Part shown: piece after piece, positions 21,319 to 62,947 of the stretch
Layout of the letters: the number at the start of each line of letters is the position of its first letter
How positions within the stretch are numbered: position 1 is the first letter of the stretch
Source: Eledone cirrhosa
Taxonomy: Eukaryota
DNA length: 64,000 bases
Assembly: GCA_964016885.1 (NCBI GenBank)
Contig: OZ024742.1
Coordinates: 297,290,001-297,354,000 of the forward strand
Direction: 5' to 3'
Made by a program: the position numbers and the translations under genes
The notes under the pieces: generated by a model
Databases searched by the model: none
Seen by the model: the letters and a program-made list of their open reading frames with translations, nothing else
Told to the model about the DNA's origin: nothing

Positions 21319-21698
21319 TGAACGCAGAAGTAAATATTTCGAAAAACGTTGCAACCGAAGGAAGCAGGAAGACGATACTTTCGTTCATGGAGGTATGTTT
21401 TCCTGCTAGGTACGGGTATGTTCTTTGTAGAAATATTCATATGTTGTTTCTGCAAGATGAATATAAGTCAATAGAGTCTTCAACCGAGGGAGCCAAATAG
21501 TAATAATAATAAATTTGAAGACTAAAATCCAAAGAGGGCTCGAGAAGGATAAATATATATCAAATATATAAGAACCGTAGAGCAAATATTTATATTCTTC
21601 CTGTCTTCCTTCGGTTGCAAAGTTTTTCAAAATATTTACTTCTGCGTTCACAGATTGATTTTTTTAGTTTCAGAAGATCCCGTTAAGGGTTATGGTAA

Positions 21699-22991
21699 GG
21701 GAGAAAAGCAATCTCGCACAATTTGGCACGAAACGCCTATAAAAATTGATCAGGCCTAACTGACGTAGTGAGGTCGGTGGAGGCAAATCCTCTATGACCT
21801 TAACTCGCTCAGGTCGGGGTCGAATACCGTCAGCATCGATGACGTGATCCAAGAAAGTCAGTGACTCAGCACCAAAAACACATTTGGGTGCATTAATCTG
21901 TACATTATACGCCTTCAATCGGCGGAAAAGAAGATTCAAATGGTGCGTATGTTGTTCTTGAGAAGAACTAGCAATGAGCAGGTCGTCAATATATGTATAG
22001 ACGAAATCGAGGCCACGAGTAACCTCATCCATAAACCGCTGAAACGTACTAGCGGCATTCCTTAATCCGAACGGCATGGTCAAAAACTCAAATGACCCAA
22101 ATGGCGTAACTATAGCCATTTTGGGAATGTTTATGGACAGGAATTTGATGGTACGCACGAATTAAATCTAGTTTGGAGAATACCTTGCATCCCTGCAACG
22201 AAGACGCAAAGTCTTGCAGATGAGGGTTAGGATAAAGGTCTGGTTCCGTTATTGAATTTAAGCGTCGATAATCTCCAGTCGCTTTCGGTACAATGTGTAA
22301 TGGGGACGCCCACGGGCTCGTGGACGGACGAATAATCCCCAACTGCAGCATATGATCAAACTCTGATCGTGCTGCTTTGAGTTTGTCCGGAGGCAAGCGA
22401 CGAGGACGAGAAAAAACGGGAGCACCAATTGTAGTTATGAAGTGCTCCGTGGTATGAGTTGGCTCATCAACTCGAAAATTTCCCTGAGTCAGTTGCGGGA
22501 ACGAGTTCAACAACGCATGGTAAGTATCGCCGGTGTTAGCAAGAAAAAAAGGTCGGGCTAACCGTTAGAACTCCTGCTGCCTTGCCAACAACAAAAAAAC
22601 CAGTGATGTCATCAATTAGGCGTTTACGACGGAGGTCCACCGTCAATGAAAAATGGTGGAGAAAATCCGCGCCTCGAATCGGATACGGCAAGGCAGCGAC
22701 AGTAAAAATCCATTTAAACTCACGCCGCAGATTACAGAACTGCAAAGGTAGCGAGATTTGTCCGAAGGTTCGAATCGGCGAACAATTTACTGCCTGCAAC
22801 TCAATAGGTGACTCAGGGGGAGTCTCCTTCATACAACACACAGGCCATATTGAAAAAGCTGCACCTGTGTCAACCAGAAAGGCTTTACCTGATAGCAGGT
22901 CCTCAATAAAAAAGTGGCGGTTGGATGATGTTTCGCAGAGCGCACTATCCGCCGTTAGTGACTCTGGTCGTCGTTTCCCTTGTAAGCACAA
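21699..22991 (-). pseudogene. pol: Gypsy pol remnant: aspartic protease plus reverse transcriptase
   Basis: FLVDTGA and IRGADFL (protease); SPWASPLHIVPK, DYRRLN, FSKLDLIRAYHQIP, MPFGLRNAASTFQRFMD, YIDDLLIA and GLINFYRRF (RT). Spread over three ORFs. Confidence 0.92.
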
Positions 22992-23714
22992 GGAGGCCTA
23001 CAACGGGCGGCTTTGTCACCATATTTGTCATGGTAATAACAATATGATGGATTTGAAGATTTGGAACGGCTACGGCGGCGAGGAGTTGAATAAGATTGTG
23101 AGCGGCTCCTCTGCCCTCCAAAAGACCTGAGTTCCTGGCACAACTCTGCCATTTGACGAGTTATGGATTCCATAGTTTTGACCAACTTATCACTCGCTGA
23201 TGAGCGTGATTGGGGAAGAGAAGAGGAAGCAACGTACTTTTGCTTCGAAGTGTCTCTCTTCGTCACTTCTATTTTGTCGGCAGAGACAGCAATGTGGTCG
23301 AGTATGTTTAACTCTAGCATATGGGCTAGCATCGCCTGTACCTCTTGAGAGAAGAACAATTGCTTCAGGAAAGGGCTATCCTGATCTTGGAATCACTCAA
23401 TTCCCGCAAATGCCGGAGCAAAGCGGTAGGGGTTCTGTCACCTAGTCGTTCGTCCTCGATCAATGACCGAAAACGACTCTCTACCGATTTACAGTTCCTT
23501 CTCAAGATCTCGCCTTTTAAAGAATCATACGTTAAGTCAGAGGGGGGTCTGTAATAAGGTATTGGACCGAATCTGCTAAATTAGGGGGAAGTCCGCTAAT
23601 CAAGACAGCGAGGCGCTGGTCAGACTCGGTCTTACAGACCGTAAAATACGCCTGTAGCTGGGCGAACCACAGCTTAGGGTTTCCGGTAAAGGCGGGCAAA
23701 TGTGGCGTATTCAT
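22955..23714 (-). pseudogene. gag: Gypsy gag remnant
   Basis: MNTPHLPAFTGNPKLWFAQLQAYF N-terminus, LGDRTP motif, RS-rich linker and CYYHDKYGDKAARCRPPC knuckle. Frameshifted. Confidence 0.85.
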
Positions 23715-41731: not shown

Positions 41732-41820
41732 CTCAGCAGACAGGAGGGAGTAGTTAGCCTTGATAAGCATCAATAAATGCGAAACAAGGCCTTGTCCGCT
41801 TATCTCCCCTGTTTGCTGAG
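41732..41820 (+). ncRNA. Type-I hammerhead ribozyme, U3-A8 core variant
   Basis: UUGAUAA (41760-66), stem II gcau/augc, GAAAC (41781-85), palindromic stem III ACAAGGCCUUGU, GUC^ at 41796. Extended stem I cucagcagacagg/ccuguuugcugag. C-C mismatch at 1.1/2.1. Confidence 0.78.
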
Positions 41821-42045: not shown

Positions 42046-45000
42046 TCATCACCGTTTTACGTCCGTTCTTCCACGCTAGCATGGGTTAGACGGGTTGTCC
42101 TGTTGTGGGCAGTGTCTGGTCGGCTGACCATGCCTTGCTCATACAGGAACTGATCTGGCTTGATTTCTACAGCTGGATGCCCTTCCTAACACCAACCTCA
42201 TTTACAGTGAGTGCTGGGTGCTTTTTCGTGGCGCCTACACGTCCACTTTACAGTGTGGGCTGGGTGCTTTTTTGCCGTGGCACCTCCACGACCACCTTGC
42301 GGTGGGGGGGGGGGGCATATTGTTTATATGCTTCAGCATGTACCCATGGGAGGTCGGGTACCCTGTATTACTGCGTGACGCCAGAAGTCACGGTCGTGTG
42401 TCATTGACTTTGAGAGGTGTAGTTGGGTAAGGTCGGCTTTTATCACCTCATCCCAAGTCATCTTGGGTCTCCCCACTCCGCGGTTTCCATCAACTTCTAG
42501 TGCTCTGCACCTTTTTATGCAGCTGTCATCCTTCATACGCATCACATGTCCATACCAGCGTAACCGCCTCTCCTGCACGCAGCATTTGATTCCTCTTATG
42601 CTCAGTCTCTCTCTCAATTCATTTATGCTTTGTCGTTCACGTATATTACTGTTACACATCCATCGGAGCATGCAGGCTTCGTTTCTCTCTAATCTACGTA
42701 GGTCTTCCACCTTCAGCGCCCAGGTCTCACTACCATGCAACATCGCTGTTCGGATACACGCATCATACAGTCTGCCTTTCATTCTGAGGGAGAAGCCTTT
42801 TGCAGCTAGCAGTGGTAGTAGTTCCCTAAACTTCTTCCATCCCGTTCTTACCCTAGTTATTGTACTTTCTGAGCACCCACCTCCGTTGCTAATTCGGTCA
42901 CCTAGGTAGCAGAAGCTGTCTACTGTTTCTACAGGGCCCTCCCAGAGATTGGTGGTACTTGTTTCCTGTGGCTGTTTGCTTGCTGTTTCAGCACAGCTGC
43001 TGCATGTGAATCCTACATTCTTAATTAAGCTTCCTGAGATCCCGCTACATCTCTTGTGTACCCATTGTTTGCATTTGGGGCAAAGAATGGAGTTCCTACC
43101 TACACCTTTCCTACATACTGAGCAAGGCCATTTCCCTGAGGGGATCTGGGTTCTGTTTTCTCGTCTACTTATAAGGACCTTAGTCTTTGTCATGTTGACT
43201 TTGAGGCCCTTTCTCTCTAGTCCCTGCTTCCAGGTTTGGAATTTATTCTCTAGTTCTACCATAGATTCAGCTATGAGTGCGAGGTCATCAGCATACAGGA
43301 GTTCCCATGGGCATCCGGTCTTAAACTCCTCCGTTATTGCCTGCAGGACTATGATGAACAGGAGAGGGCTAAGAACAGAGCCCTGGTGGACCCCAACCTG
43401 TACGCTAAATTCCTCGCTATACTCATTGCCAATCCTAACTTTGCTGACTGCTCCCCTATACATGGCTTGTACCGCTTTCACAAGCCATTCATCTACTCCT
43501 AGTTTTCTAAGAGCCCACCAGATTACTGCACGTGGAACTCTGTCAAAGGCTTTCTCAAGGTCGACAAATGCCAAGTAGAGTGGCTTACTTTTAGCTAGGT
43601 ACTTTTCCTGTAATTGCCTCACAAGGAAGAGCGCATCAGTGGTGCCTTTCCCTGGTACAAACCCAAATTGCATCTCGTCTATATTCACCCGGTCCCTAAT
43701 CAGCTGTGCTATAACTCTTTCTGTTACTTTCATGACCTGGTCCATCAACTTTATACCTCTATAGTTTCCTCTATCTAGTGCATCGCCTTTACCTTTGTAG
43801 CAGTTGACAATGATGCTACTGCACCAATCTTTTGGTATGGCCCCCTCTAGTATTACCTGGTTAACGATACGTGTGGTTATAGTGTGACCTACAGACCCAG
43901 ATGCCTTCAGCATCTCGGCAGCTATACCCGATGGACCGGTTGCCTTCCCTATCTTCATATCTCTGATTGCCTTACTTACTACGCTGCCGCTGACTTGTAC
44001 TGCTGGTCCCTCTATAGGGTCTACGTGGGGTAGGGTCTCTTCTTCCCATGCATTCTCCTCATTTAGTAATCTATCATAATGACTCTTCCATGCATCTTTC
44101 TTCTCAGCACTTGTGAGGGCAAGCTCACCTTTATCATTCCGGATACACTTCTCTCCAATGACATCACAACTATCTCTGACACACTGCCTCGCAATCTTGA
44201 ATACCTCCTGTTTCTGGTCCTCACGTTGTAAAACATGCTTGAATTTTCTATCCTCTGCTTCCCTCCTAGCTAAGTATACTTGTCGCCTAGCTTCCCTCTT
44301 GGTCTCTATGTAATGTACCCTGCTCCCCCCGTTCTTCCATTCTTTCCATGCCTGTCTCTTGGCCTTGACTGCTTCATCTACCTTATTGTTCCACCACCAA
44401 GTCACTCTCCTCCTGCTTGAGGTCTTACTCCAGCCACAAACCTCATCCGTCGCCTCTAGTAAGTTATTTTTTAGGAACTCCCAGTTCTCTTCTACGTTAA
44501 ATGTCTCTATCTGTTCTTCTTTACTGTCGTAGGCGTTGAGTAAAATATCTTTAAATCTGTTACTGGTTGAGGGGACTTTCAGCTTCCAGATCTTTCTTCT
44601 CCAGGTTGGCCTCTGTTTCAGGGCTCGTCTAGTTCTGACCGTGAGGTCGCTGACAACTAAGCTATGTTGGGATGTACATTCCTCACTAGGGAAGGCTTTT
44701 GTGTTTACGACCGTCCATCTGTCACGTCCTCTGATGAGGATAAAATCTAACTGACTAGAGTGCTCCCCTGATCTATAGGTGATCAGGTGGTTGTCGGGTT
44801 TTTTAAAGTTTGTGTTACATATCGACATGTCATTGGCGTCGCAGAATTCTAGAAGTCTGAATCCTTCCTCATTCCTTGTGCCAACTCCATGGCCTCCATG
44901 TACTCTATTGAAGCCGTCGCAGTGTTTACCTACGTGTCCGTTAAAATCTCCTGCAATGATTAGGAAGTCCTTGTCGTCTGTTAGAGCAGTAGTGTGTATT

Positions 45001-45460
45001 AGGGACTCGTAAAACCTATCCTTAAGTTCGTCTGGCAGCCCCGATTGGGGTGCGTAAGCTGATATTATTGTGGTAATTGTCTTATTCAGGACTAGTCTGA
45101 GTTTAATGATTCTTGCATTTACCCTGTACACTGAGATTACTTTATCTACCCACTTGTCAGCTAATAGTATACCTACACCACCCATCCCATCGTCATTTCC
45201 CACCCAGAAAAATTTGTAGCACTGGCTTTTTCCTACAAGGACTCTAGCAGACCCTCCTCTCCATCTAGTCTCTTGCACACAGCATACATCAACTTCCTTT
45301 CGCTCTAGCATTTCTACGATTTCTCCTGCTCTTCCTTTCATTGAGCCTACATTGATGGTACCAACTCGGAGTTTTGGGCATTTGTCGACACTCGTAGGGG
45401 AGGGTCTCTGGGTTGGCGCTTCACGTGGGTGCTTGGTAGCTCGCAGATTCATATTTCATA
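42041..45460 (-). mobile_element. Near full-length RTE-clade LINE inserted in (TA)n
   Basis: Single ORF plus a roughly 290-bp 3' UTR ending ...CCCATGCTAGCGTGGAAGAACGGACGTAAAACGGTGATGATGA. TA runs on both sides. Confidence 0.95.
42333..45452 (-). CDS. RTE LINE polyprotein: AP-like endonuclease, reverse transcriptase and a PHD-like zinc finger (1039 aa, uninterrupted)
   Basis: APE motifs GTINV, CVQETRW, SAYAPQ, GDFNGHVG, DFILI, SQH. RT motifs NYRGIKL, QFGF, FVDLEKAFDRV, GVHQGSVLSPLLF, YADDLAL, FCYLG. Cys cluster CSVC...CPKC...HKRC...CSSC. Confidence 0.96.
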   Translation of the reverse strand: MNLRATKHPREAPTQRPSPTSVDKCPKLRVGTINVGSMKGRAGEIVEMLERKEVDVCCVQETRWRGGSARVLVGKSQCYKFFWVGNDDGMGGVGILLADKWVDKVISVYRVNARIIKLRLVLNKTITTIISAYAPQSGLPDELKDRFYESLIHTTALTDDKDFLIIAGDFNGHVGKHCDGFNRVHGGHGVGTRNEEGFRLLEFCDANDMSICNTNFKKPDNHLITYRSGEHSSQLDFILIRGRDRWTVVNTKAFPSEECTSQHSLVVSDLTVRTRRALKQRPTWRRKIWKLKVPSTSNRFKDILLNAYDSKEEQIETFNVEENWEFLKNNLLEATDEVCGWSKTSSRRRVTWWWNNKVDEAVKAKRQAWKEWKNGGSRVHYIETKREARRQVYLARREAEDRKFKHVLQREDQKQEVFKIARQCVRDSCDVIGEKCIRNDKGELALTSAEKKDAWKSHYDRLLNEENAWEEETLPHVDPIEGPAVQVSGSVVSKAIRDMKIGKATGPSGIAAEMLKASGSVGHTITTRIVNQVILEGAIPKDWCSSIIVNCYKGKGDALDRGNYRGIKLMDQVMKVTERVIAQLIRDRVNIDEMQFGFVPGKGTTDALFLVRQLQEKYLAKSKPLYLAFVDLEKAFDRVPRAVIWWALRKLGVDEWLVKAVQAMYRGAVSKVRIGNEYSEEFSVQVGVHQGSVLSPLLFIIVLQAITEEFKTGCPWELLYADDLALIAESMVELENKFQTWKQGLERKGLKVNMTKTKVLISRRENRTQIPSGKWPCSVCRKGVGRNSILCPKCKQWVHKRCSGISGSLIKNVGFTCSSCAETASKQPQETSTTNLWEGPVETVDSFCYLGDRISNGGGCSESTITRVRTGWKKFRELLPLLAAKGFSLRMKGRLYDACIRTAMLHGSETWALKVEDLRRLERNEACMLRWMCNSNIRERQSINELRERLSIRGIKCCVQERRLRWYGHVMRMKDDSCIKRCRALEVDGNRGVGRPKMTWDEVIKADLTQLHLSKSMTHDRDFWRHAVIQGTRPPMGTC

Positions 45461-58617: not shown

Positions 58618-59645
58618 TTCTAACTTTGATATTGGTTATAACACACACACATTTTATTTGATTATCTTATTTTATTTTATTCTTTTACCATCTTATTCCT
58701 CCTACCACTTTATCCAACATCTGTCTAACTTTGAGATTGATTATAACACACACACATTTTATTTTATTTGAATCTTCATTTTTATTTTTCATTTATTTTT
58801 TATTTTCTTCATTTTATTGCCTTCTATTTCTTCATATGCATGGCACCCCCCCCCCCCACCCACCACCACCACCACCACGAGAAATGGTGGCAGGATGGAT
58901 GAAAAACCACGCAGATACTTCTAAATGTCAGCAGCAGCAAGATCTAGGCTGACTGCAGCACCAACACCACTACCAAAATAAGGGTAGAGGTCAGATGTAC
59001 TTAACAATAGCAAAATCAAACACTACAGGTAGCCTCACCCCAGAAAGAATTTCTATAGACTTTTGACTGAGGAATGCTCTCACAACTGACCAATGGGAGG
59101 AGTGACCTTACAAATCTTTCTAACTTTGAGACTGGGTATAACACACACACATTTTATTTGATTATCTTATTTTATTTTATTCTTTTACCATCTTATTCCT
59201 TCTACCACTTTATCATTTTTTTGAGCTGACTCCAACACCAACACCACTACCAACATAAGAGTAGCGGTCAGATGTACTTAACAATAACAAGAACAACCAC
59301 TACAGATTGCCTCGCCTCAGAACGAATTTCTATAGACTTTTGACTGAGGAATATCCTCACAACTGACCAATGGGAGGAGAAGATGTCCTTTGACGCTGAA
59401 ATTCGTTTGTTTAAATTCATATGATTCCAGTTCTTCAGTGAAATAACAAGCCAACCAGGAACTGGGCATATCAGAGTATTGACAAAGTTAAACACCTCAA
59501 CAACATGTGTACTCGTCTCTACCACACTAATTCGGACTGCCTGAAGAAGTCACAGCCAAAGATGGCTGCCACCGAAATATATATAGCAGTAATAAACGAA
59601 GCCAAATTTTAAATATTTGACTTATTTATTTTAGTTTATTTTATA
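58616..59645 (+). mobile_element. Non-coding element with internal tandem duplications and a 3' hammerhead (pLTR- or retrozyme-like)
   Basis: TCTAACTTTGA.A.TG..TATAACACACACACATTTTATTT at about 58616, 58724 and 59116. A roughly 140-bp duplication at about 58962-59101 / 59239-59378. HHR and AATAAA near the end, then TA. Confidence 0.65.
59536..59590 (+). ncRNA. Minimal type-I hammerhead ribozyme
   Basis: acugc-CUGAAGA-aguca-cagcc aaagau ggcug-ccacc-GAAA-uauau-AUA^gcagu, immediately followed by AATAAA. Base of stem II is decayed. Confidence 0.7.
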
Positions 59646-59753: not shown

Positions 59754-60530
<777 letters not shown>

Positions 60531-60537
60531 TATTTTG

Positions 60538-61068
60538 AGAATAAACTCTCAGTCGTTTACAATAATTAAGCTCCAGGAAGGGGCTCTTCCGAGCAGTTAA
60601 ATACATTTAAAATATATGATAAACACGAAATGTGTTTATATTGCAACAGACAAAGTTAGCTATTAATGAAATAAACTAATTAAAGTGAATACAATTTGTC
60701 TGTCTCGATACAAGTCAATAAAGACAAGCTTATAATTTTACTGGATTCCTGTTGATAAGCACAGAAGATTTGGATATTTCACTCTTTTATTTCTATTCCA
60801 TTTCGATTCTCTTTATTTTTCAATTCACATTCCACCGTTGCGAAACTTATTTGGGTTTCGAGGTTCAAATTCGTCTACAGAACAGGTTTGAATTTTGAAA
60901 TTTAAATATGTCCAGGAATCATGGCCGTTGCCAATATAAGCTTGTCTTTATTGACTTGTATCGAGACAGACAAATTGTATTCACTTTAATTAGTTTATTT
61001 CATTAATAGCTAACTTTGTCTGTTGCAATATAAACACATTTCGTGTTTATCATATATTTTAAATGTAT
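60538..61068 (+). mobile_element. HHR-bearing fold-back non-coding retroelement in (TA)n
   Basis: 134-bp inverted repeats at 60601-60734 / 60935-61068 enclosing a hammerhead. Confidence 0.85.
60744..60920 (+). ncRNA. Type-I hammerhead ribozyme, U3-A8 variant with long stem III and a large loop II
   Basis: gauuccug (60744-51), UUGAUAA, gca..77 nt..ugc, GAAAC (60842-46), a 24-bp G-U-rich stem, GUC^ (60910-12), caggaauc. Perfect 8-bp stem I. Confidence 0.85.
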
Positions 61069-61639: not shown

Positions 61640-62947
61640 TTTACATCACTACAAAAGAGGACATTATCTTTCATGCTAGAAAAACTCTACTCTTTACTAA
61701 TGAAGCTATTTGGGTTTAAAATTCAAGCCCTGAAAACTCTTTTGACGTTGCGATTTGCGATGGGTTCATATGATGTGTGCTGATGTGTGTGACTTAGTAG
61801 GATTATTCCTTCTCCAAACTCTTAAAGAGAAATTTCCTTCCCATAATATCGGTTTATACCGAGACATTGGCAGTTTATCATACCACCAACGGCCATAACC
61901 TTGATAAATTCCGTAAGCATTTAATCAATACTTTTGCTAACCATAACCTTAAAATTACTTTTGATACGAACCTTACTAATGCGAATTTCTTGACATTAAT
62001 CTTGATCTACTTAGTGCCTCTTTTAAACCTTATCATAAACCTAACGAGAATCTAAGATATATACACAAAGAGTCTTGCCATCCCCCTATAATTTATAAAA
62101 ATCTTACTCATAATATTAGCCGTAGGATTTCTACCTTATCTTCGTATCTAGACATTTTTAACGAAGCCGTCCCTTATTATAATAAGGCCCTCAATAACAG
62201 CAGCTTTACAGAACATATTAAATATTTACCAACTCCTCCCCACAAAACTAGTCATAATAACAGGAAAAGGAAAATTATTTAGTTTACATCCCGTTCTCTC
62301 TAACTGTCAAAACTCATGTAGGAAGGAAATTCCTTGACCTCCTAGACAAACATTTCCCCCCTAATCATAGATATTATAAGATTTTTAATAGAAATGTAGT
62401 CAAAATCAGTTACTCTTGCTGTCCATCAATGAAGTCTAAAATCACCAACTCTAATCGTACGAGAGTAAATCCAGGATGCAGTTGCAGGAAGCCGGAAGAA
62501 TACCCATTACAGGGCAAATGTAATACTAAAGCCATTGTGTATGAGGCCAAATTGACACCGTTGGCTAACAACCAGCCAGCCAAGAGTGAACGATATGTTG
62601 GCATGACTCAGGACAGGTTCAAAACCAGGTTTTATGCACATGTCGCTTCTTTTAAACACTCTGATAAAAGAACAACAACGGTTCTCGCAAATAAAGTGTG
62701 GGAATTCAAAGACAAAAACATCCCGTACACTATCGATTGGTCTATTTTGGACCATTCTAGAGAATACCAAAGGGGCACAAAGTATTGCTCTTTGTGCACC
62801 ACAGAAAAATTTAGAATTTTCCAAAATTTGAAAGCCAATTCCACTTGCCTTAACTCCAAGACCGAGATCTTCAGATGTTGTCCTCAGCTGAAATCACATC
62901 TACTTTGTAACTGGATTGACATTCCTAAGATGACTCAACCACCTTGA
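61640..62947 (+). pseudogene. Penelope-like element (Naiad/Chlamys-type) RT C-terminus plus GIY-YIG endonuclease; 5'-truncated and frameshifted
   Basis: ARKTLLF, FDVA..MGSYD, DLVGLFLL, NIGLYRD, PFSLTVKTHVGRKFLDLLDKHFP, KISYSC, CSCRK..PLQGKC, IVYEA...RYVGMT..FKTRF..H, CSLCTTEK, LNSKTE. Confidence 0.9.

Follow-up and report, generated by a model that had tools for sequence, protein, structure and literature searches.

Layout and predicted fold of the hammerhead motif

The window, by which we mean the whole stretch of 64,000 nucleotides of Eledone cirrhosa DNA that was analyzed, carries a hammerhead motif at 60744-60920 within a truncated copy of a dispersed non-coding repeat. The insertion and the motif are built up as follows.

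60517..60734, minus strand: inverted 3' piece of the repeat unit (unit positions 422-557 plus an 82-nt tail), preceding the truncated unit
60733..61068, plus strand: 5'-truncated unit (unit positions 220-555), 98.5% identical to an observed full unit and ending at a (TA)n tract
60744..60751, plus strand: stem I, 5' strand, pairing with 60913-60920, with compensatory variants in other subfamilies
60752..60758, plus strand: core positions 3-9, U3-A8 variant; older subfamilies have C3-G8 and U3.G8 forms
60759..60841, plus strand: helix II, 60759-60761 pairing with 60839-60841 and closing a 77-nt pyrimidine-rich loop
60842..60846, plus strand: core GAAA and A15.1-C15.2, with no fixed difference among eight long-form clades
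60847..60872, plus strand: left arm of helix III, first copy of a duplicated 26-nt self-complementary hairpin
60873..60883, plus strand: apical loop, a worn duplication junction with the old GUC and a second GCGAAAC
60884..60909, plus strand: right arm of helix III, second copy of the 26-nt hairpin
60910..60912, plus strand: GUC triplet, cut predicted 3' of 60912
60913..60920, plus strand: stem I, 3' strand, pairing with 60744-60751

The core at 60752-60758 reads UUGAUAA and, together with 60842-60845 and 60910-60912, has the letters expected of a type I hammerhead (C3/U3 U4 G5 A6 N7 G8/A8 A9; G12 A13 A14; A15.1-U16.1; H17). Three helices with an open helix I were found as well, stem I and helix III covarying across subfamilies and helix II comprising 3 bp. 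By its sequence, the motif is a type I hammerhead and is predicted to cut itself. The preliminary description had read the same core, a perfect 8-bp stem I (60744-60751/60913-60920) and a cut at 60912, where the GUC triplet ends, and these readings were reproduced. Searches with Rfam covariance models returned no hammerhead match at the gathering score or at E<=10, which may be explained by the long insertions in the motif. A strict hammerhead pattern run over the window gave 0 rows, and a looser one 7.

Between the helix III arms 60848-60871 and 60885-60908, 24 pairs follow one another without a break (16 Watson-Crick and 8 G-U, 0 mismatches), as originally counted, with the wobble Gs at 60853, 60854, 60855, 60860, 60862, 60863, 60885 and 60886. 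That all eight non-Watson-Crick pairs are G-U on one strand has a probability of 0.008 under strand-neutral transitions. Folding of both strands, which had been proposed as a check, showed the helix to be strongly specific to the plus strand, at -22.1 kcal/mol (z -5.75, 0/200 shuffles equal or better) versus -6.3 kcal/mol (z -0.81) on the minus strand.

Helix II of the window copy has just 3 bp, and in the nearest-neighbor model its hammerhead fold lies 4.4 kcal/mol above the predicted minimum, the preferred fold burying the core. The predicted share of the active fold, in a model that ignores core and tertiary contacts, is 4e-4 in the window copy versus 0.1-0.36 in several older clades; for several older clades, the predicted minimum is itself the active fold. 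The helix II loop is much shorter in older subfamilies. Loop II (60762-60838) grew stepwise by pyrimidine-rich insertions, with hammerhead lengths of about 90, 138, 168 and 179 nt; it is in the longest hammerhead forms and in clades V, U and S that the active fold takes up the smallest predicted share.

Repeat family and insertion structure

The motif sits in a non-coding repeat of ~557 nt that occurs at more than 1,200 places. A search of the 3.0 Gb genome gave 1985 candidate matches to the repeat, the best 40 of these 1985 at at least 99%. Degenerate patterns, each run with its own control, matched 1270 times for the right arm, 929 times for the left arm and 333 times for short-helix forms, with 0 matches for each control. 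The unit is 557 nt long (500-557 nt across subfamilies), and units are joined directly head to tail. Two hammerheads in tandem on one strand were found in 6/80 young insertions, and an inverted part in 52/80. The 3' ends lie at unit position ~555 (66/132) or at ~82 of the next unit (62/132), and a (TA)n tract adjoins 122 of 131 of them. At the window locus, the inverted 3' piece creates a 134-bp perfect inverted repeat around the hammerhead.

The family thus bears the marks of a non-autonomous Penelope-like element, namely 5' truncation, an inverted 5' copy, an optional tail and a (TA)n target. No ORF was found between tandem units, and no ORF with reverse transcriptase (RT) and GIY-YIG between repeats in either the tandem units or the two 2.5-kb spacings, as an autonomous EN+ Penelope-like element (PLE) would have. 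An autonomous element with hammerheads 2.5 kb apart, considered for two places, was rejected, both being segmental duplications. PLE coding pieces were found in 24/365 loci; in four insertions they join family DNA without a TA tract, and the pieces so joined belong to different PLE families. At these four (L030, L049, L080 and L083), family pieces join PLE coding fragments directly, three of them inverted; the junctions may reflect either nested insertion or a switch of template from one of the two RNAs to the other.

Among known elements, the family resembles the animal non-LTR retrozymes (PMC7229834; bioRxiv 10.64898/2026.07.22.740005) in its short, non-coding, AT-rich unit with one type I hammerhead and in being dispersed and forming short direct tandems. 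In the available parts of these two sources, non-LTR retrozymes are proposed to be non-autonomous Penelope-like derivatives and are expressed as linear and circular unit-length RNA. By the same account, their units measure ~300 nt (230-390) and their helix III 1-2 bp, versus 500-557 nt and 24-26 bp here, and unlike them the present family occurs mostly as single or inverted insertions. With EN+ PLE insertions, as far as given in the consulted parts of Craig 2021 (PMC8557442) and Frangieh 2024 (PMC11167929), it shares 5' truncation, partial tandems, an inverted 5' copy, (TA)n targets and an optional tail from two RT start points, the two 3' end points matching the two RT start sites of the Anolis element (PMC11167929); unlike in these elements, the tail measures 82 nt instead of 30-40, and the repeat has no RT/GIY-YIG ORF. 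The repeat is likely a non-LTR retrozyme-like Penelope derivative with a longer unit.

The family and its variants also occur in contigs of four runs (kind unrecorded; one study, at most two samples). Outside the helix, the source lineages of clades Z to A are 29% apart, whereas their copies have aged just ~1-3%; the element therefore evolves much faster than its dead copies.

Direction of change along the family tree

From 303 anchors, 237 copies in 175 insertions were aligned, of which 156 insertions were kept, thinning being applied to 19 insertions chosen for their likeness to the window; 7 were left out of clades. The tree was built with helix III excluded, from 111 rows comprising new loci and up to 5-8 rows of each clade; 10 distant relatives, their cores mostly canonical, served as its root. 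It takes the form of a ladder that leads from a 12-nt helix through A/T-only helices, the first Gs and the duplication to the window's clade at the tip, with median end branches dropping from 0.024-0.030 in the older part to 0.006 at the window's end. The long-form clades alone (86 insertions) gave no readable direction; a C-to-T origin of some wobbles, which they suggested, was overturned by the short-helix clades.

The eight G-U pairs of the window lie where other subfamilies have A-U. Compared with an observed A/T-only copy, all eight wobble Gs correspond to A, as do the Gs of both G-C pairs, the Cs of which correspond to T. The preliminary description had noted that every wobble can be read as an A-to-G change from a perfect palindrome, and had named ancestral G-C pairs as the result that would speak against editing; such pairs were looked for in family copies and not found, and the A-to-G direction is supported by the observed older A/T-only helix. 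The reading thus holds at the level of lineages, and the A/T-only root is favored: the free tree, which has the A/T-type rows as a basal grade, is better by 21.9 log-likelihood units, but a tree with these rows as one side clade is not rejected by the AU test (p 0.056, 66 rows; p 0.38 without the G14 rows). The nearest outgroup has a G at helix position 2, paired with C, so that the G at 60885 may be a regain.

The changes were tallied from clade to clade (13 clades, 12 steps), trunk changes being pooled in the tallies with those on side branches, and the 26-nt length used being present in just 5 of the 32 basal rows. Within the helix, they amounted to 15/180 for A>G, 6/98 for G>A and 3/273 for T>C, and outside it to 45/1331, 35/836 and 37/1667, respectively. 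The Gs at helix positions 2, 7, 9 and 14 are older than the duplication, and the others were gained at separate later steps. In the young clades (77 insertions, 2 incomplete), all eight wobbles are present in 46 of the 75 complete insertions and seven in the other 29, and a sub-lineage of 6 insertions converted the 60860-60896 wobble to G-C. One U-to-C, at left arm position 26, arose opposite A. Private A>G changes in helix III number at most two in any copy; outside the helix, the highest count per copy is 5 for A>G and 6 for T>C. Of the outcomes that a polarized family alignment had been expected to yield, the A-to-G direction was thus obtained, and clustered, copy-specific changes were not, 7-8 wobbles being shared in 75/75 complete young insertions.

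Along the same ladder, the core passes from C3-G8 through U3.G8 to U3-A8, position 4 being A or C over a long part of the way. The 3-8 pair is thereby restored after a U.G stage, and since this path consists of C-to-U followed by G-to-A, it is unlike ADAR products. In clades Z, Y, X, W and V and in the nearest outgroup, it was subfamilies having A or C at core position 4 that spread, one of them having C at position 6 as well. The distant relatives L232 and L240 carry U3-A8 cores too, so that within the wider family this variant must have originated repeatedly.

Origin of the long helix III

In distant subfamilies, helix III is a 26-nt self-complementary hairpin. In clade W (6 insertions), the segment from GCGAAAC to GUC is present twice in a row with the junction intact, and the junction pattern matches 122 places. 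The arms of the window copy correspond to two hairpin copies at a period of 37 nt, with 22/37 letters matching. The long form of helix III is thus the 26-nt self-complementary hairpin duplicated in tandem at a 37-nt spacing, and its loop is a relic of the junction. Seven examined long-form insertions have collapsed back to one arm, four of which had been picked by the short-helix pattern.

In the parts of PMC4209133 and PMC3088659 that were consulted, a palindromic helix III is thought to let hammerheads act as dimers; the duplication would then build in cis the long helix of the dimer type. A literature search confined largely to openly accessible journals turned up neither a duplicated helix III nor an A-to-G build-up in a hammerhead. 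The component parts were already known, while the duplication and the polarized series were absent from the literature so searched.

Proposed history of the element

Directly observed are the repeat family, the Penelope-type insertion marks, the duplication and the letter-by-letter series. As an explanation we favor, with moderate confidence, a hammerhead repeat whose helix III was doubled and whose eight G-U pairs were gained singly from copying errors and kept by selection on pairing. The unit would be transcribed in tandem and cut at GUC to unit-length RNA, which the RT/GIY-YIG protein of an autonomous Penelope-like element would copy in trans into (TA)n sites. Where every pair of a helix is A-U, just one kind of single transition, A-to-G, preserves pairing, so that Gs accumulate; some would revert, and some would be fixed as G-C by a U-to-C change. 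It is probable that the first Gs were favored, as they interrupted both the slipping A/T repeat of 7 nt and the palindrome in the DNA with the RNA helix intact. Through the duplication, a long helix III of the kind proposed to form between two short palindromic hammerheads would have come to lie within a single molecule. Strand-specific selection on RNA pairing, one of the two origins offered in the preliminary description, finds support in the stepwise tallies and in the one-strand fold (z -5.75).

The course of the helix is like the compensatory stem evolution described in the abstract of PMC5381666: A-U passes through G-U to G-C at 60859-60897 and 60866-60890, with G-U as a tolerated intermediate. 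Two points set the present helix apart: a third of its pairs have stayed G-U, and it began as a pure A/T repeat.

Cleavage by the window subfamily

The ribozyme of the window subfamily might cut poorly or not at all, with helix III kept for RT binding, RNA stability or the like; we take this seriously and yet consider it unlikely. The 3-bp helix II closing a 77-nt loop and the 4.4 kcal/mol by which the active fold misses the minimum speak for it, as do the spread of ancestral subfamilies whose core has A or C as its position 4 and C as its position 6 and the in vitro insertion of an Anolis PLE without hammerhead cleavage, taken from the available part of PMC11167929. However, stem I covaries across subfamilies, and GAAAC, GUC and the 3' strand of stem I are without fixed change over eight clades, pointing to selection acting on the fold; pairing of 3 with 8 was regained following the U.G stage, and the active fold is the predicted minimum in several older clades. 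Because of the weak helix II and the non-canonical ancestral cores, cleavage would likely be slow or protein-assisted, by analogy with what is reported for PLE hammerheads.

Source of the A-to-G changes

Selection on ordinary errors is, in our view, the reasonably probable source of the A-to-G changes. The alternative of low-level ADAR editing of helix III in source copies, which would supply a large share of the changes, RT writing them and pairing selection filtering them, appears doubtful, and we weigh it here test by test. It agrees with the finding that the eight wobble Gs and the Gs of both G-C pairs all replace As, that positions 7, 10, 14, 15 and 17 turned to G in separate lineages, and that octopus hyper-editing is the highest among 19 species in the part of PMC5625713 consulted. 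According to the same source, a G directly 5' of the target A is under-represented at ADAR targets throughout the metazoans; no such avoidance was found here, the changes amounting to 3/38 for As with a 5' G versus 12/141 for the others (small numbers).

Over the whole ladder, the rate in the helix is consistent with that of free sites, 15 A>G changes being seen versus 10.9 expected at the free-column rate elsewhere in the unit (p 0.14). In the first three steps, a stretch chosen after seeing the data, A>G reached 6/45 in the helix versus 3/305 in the rest of the unit (p 2e-4). This early excess requires positive selection or a local mutagen, and thereby counts in part for editing, but it dates to a monomer helix of ~12 bp. 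It has a selective reading as well: A/T-only helices come in five lengths (13, 19, 20, 26 and 27 nt; 42 copies) and G-bearing short helices measure 26 nt in 29/29, and the first Gs keep the plus-strand fold (-8.4 vs. -6.4) while removing the minus-strand fold (0 vs. -7.3) and the DNA hairpin.

A first test on singletons (helix A>G 17/1915 vs. T>C 5/2710, p 8e-4) was set aside and redone on unbiased and young sets, as its loci had been picked by patterns that favored A/G variation; the results were weaker. In 106 insertions sampled without regard to the helix, A>G changes seen in a single insertion numbered 14/1399 in the helix versus 41/10911 elsewhere (p 0.004; under a strict rule 8 vs. 25, p 0.047), and within the helix exceeded T>C at 5/1790 (p 0.01; strict rule p 0.26). 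This excess, about 2.5-fold over the rest of the unit with T>C not raised, speaks for editing; unsampled minor source lineages under pairing selection could mimic it. In the young clade, the helix singletons show no significant excess (A>G 4/1149 vs. T>C 3/1841, p 0.44), and those of the rest of the unit no strand bias (15/8529 vs. 22/12219). Outside the helix at lineage level, A>G lies above T>C (p 0.056), and so does G>A above C>T (p 0.074).

We hold it to be a minority possibility that ADAR edits, RT-written over many rounds, drove helix III from A-U to a G-U-rich state and that the helix was then duplicated, mimicking the dimer. If true, RNA editing would be a heritable, structure-aimed mutagen acting on a mobile ribozyme.

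A reversed polarity, with the G-bearing helices older and the A/T-only ones a side branch rebuilt by G-to-A changes and by slippage of a G-free 3' half, is improbable. The AU test does not reject one clade for the A/T-type rows, the nearest outgroup carries G2-C and A/T-only helices visibly slip, but the basal grade is the better tree by the 21.9 log-likelihood units given above, the A/T-type rows have the longest end branches despite denser sampling, and the Gs at 60862, 60863 and 60886 are missing from the fresh duplication under any root.

The other origin offered in the preliminary description, a clustered, copy-specific burst of ADAR hyper-editing on the long hairpin fixed by reverse transcription, accounts for eight changes out of eight reading A-to-G on one strand, but as a single event it is excluded by Gs 2, 7, 9 and 14 predating the duplication, by the stepwise gain of the rest with six G-to-A reversals, by wobbles that are common to the subfamily with at most two private A>G per helix, and by A>G peaking at 5 per copy outside the helix versus 6 for T>C.

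Comparison with known hammerheads

The U3-A8 variant itself is already published: natural examples are described in the consulted parts of Cervera and De la Pena 2014 (PMC4209133), for the Schistosoma Cercyon elements, and of Perreault 2011 (PMC3088659). As far as the portion of PMC4209133 at hand goes, the motif is like PLE hammerheads in its type I layout, U3-A8 core and palindromic helix III (dimer model), and unlike them in its short helix II with a very long loop and in the lack of an ORF. A large helix III is described there for fungal and protist PLE hammerheads; here, in contrast, it occurs in an animal and stems from tandem duplication of a palindromic helix.

A single genome thus holds a near-complete ribozyme series, from the short hairpin through the slipping A/T repeat and the first Gs to fresh and worn duplications, along with the core series from C3-G8 through U3.G8 to U3-A8. 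Every stage is an existing copy, open to transcription and assay, by which it becomes testable whether doubling of helix III turns a palindromic, dimer-type hammerhead into an enzyme that acts as a monomer, and whether edits made by ADAR are fixed in retroelement lineages. If there was no editing, the series would still show, in a new retrozyme variant, cleanly how a stem evolves by way of G-U pairs.

Other features of the window

Two further hammerhead loci were noted. At 41760 (plus strand) and 41494 (minus strand) lies an inverted pair of identical minimal U3-A8 hammerheads with a palindromic helix III, belonging to a different family, and at 59533-59600 (plus strand) a minimal hammerhead with a canonical CUGAAGA core and a TA-palindrome helix III, which folds weakly on its own (z -1.28). 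A broken Penelope-like element at 61650-62947 (plus strand), not linked to the hammerhead family, has RT remnants with stops and frameshifts followed by an open stretch of 228 aa. This stretch lies near GIY-YIG clusters, the nearest being labeled 'commonest Mollusca' on the basis of 1-2 records; a Pfam search with the GIY-YIG-like ORF gave no family match. An open frame of 1040 aa at 42333-45455 (minus strand) presumably encodes the endonuclease and RT of an RTE-type LINE, and the fragmented frames at 21670-23392 (minus strand) we take to be the gag, protease and RT of an LTR retrotransposon.
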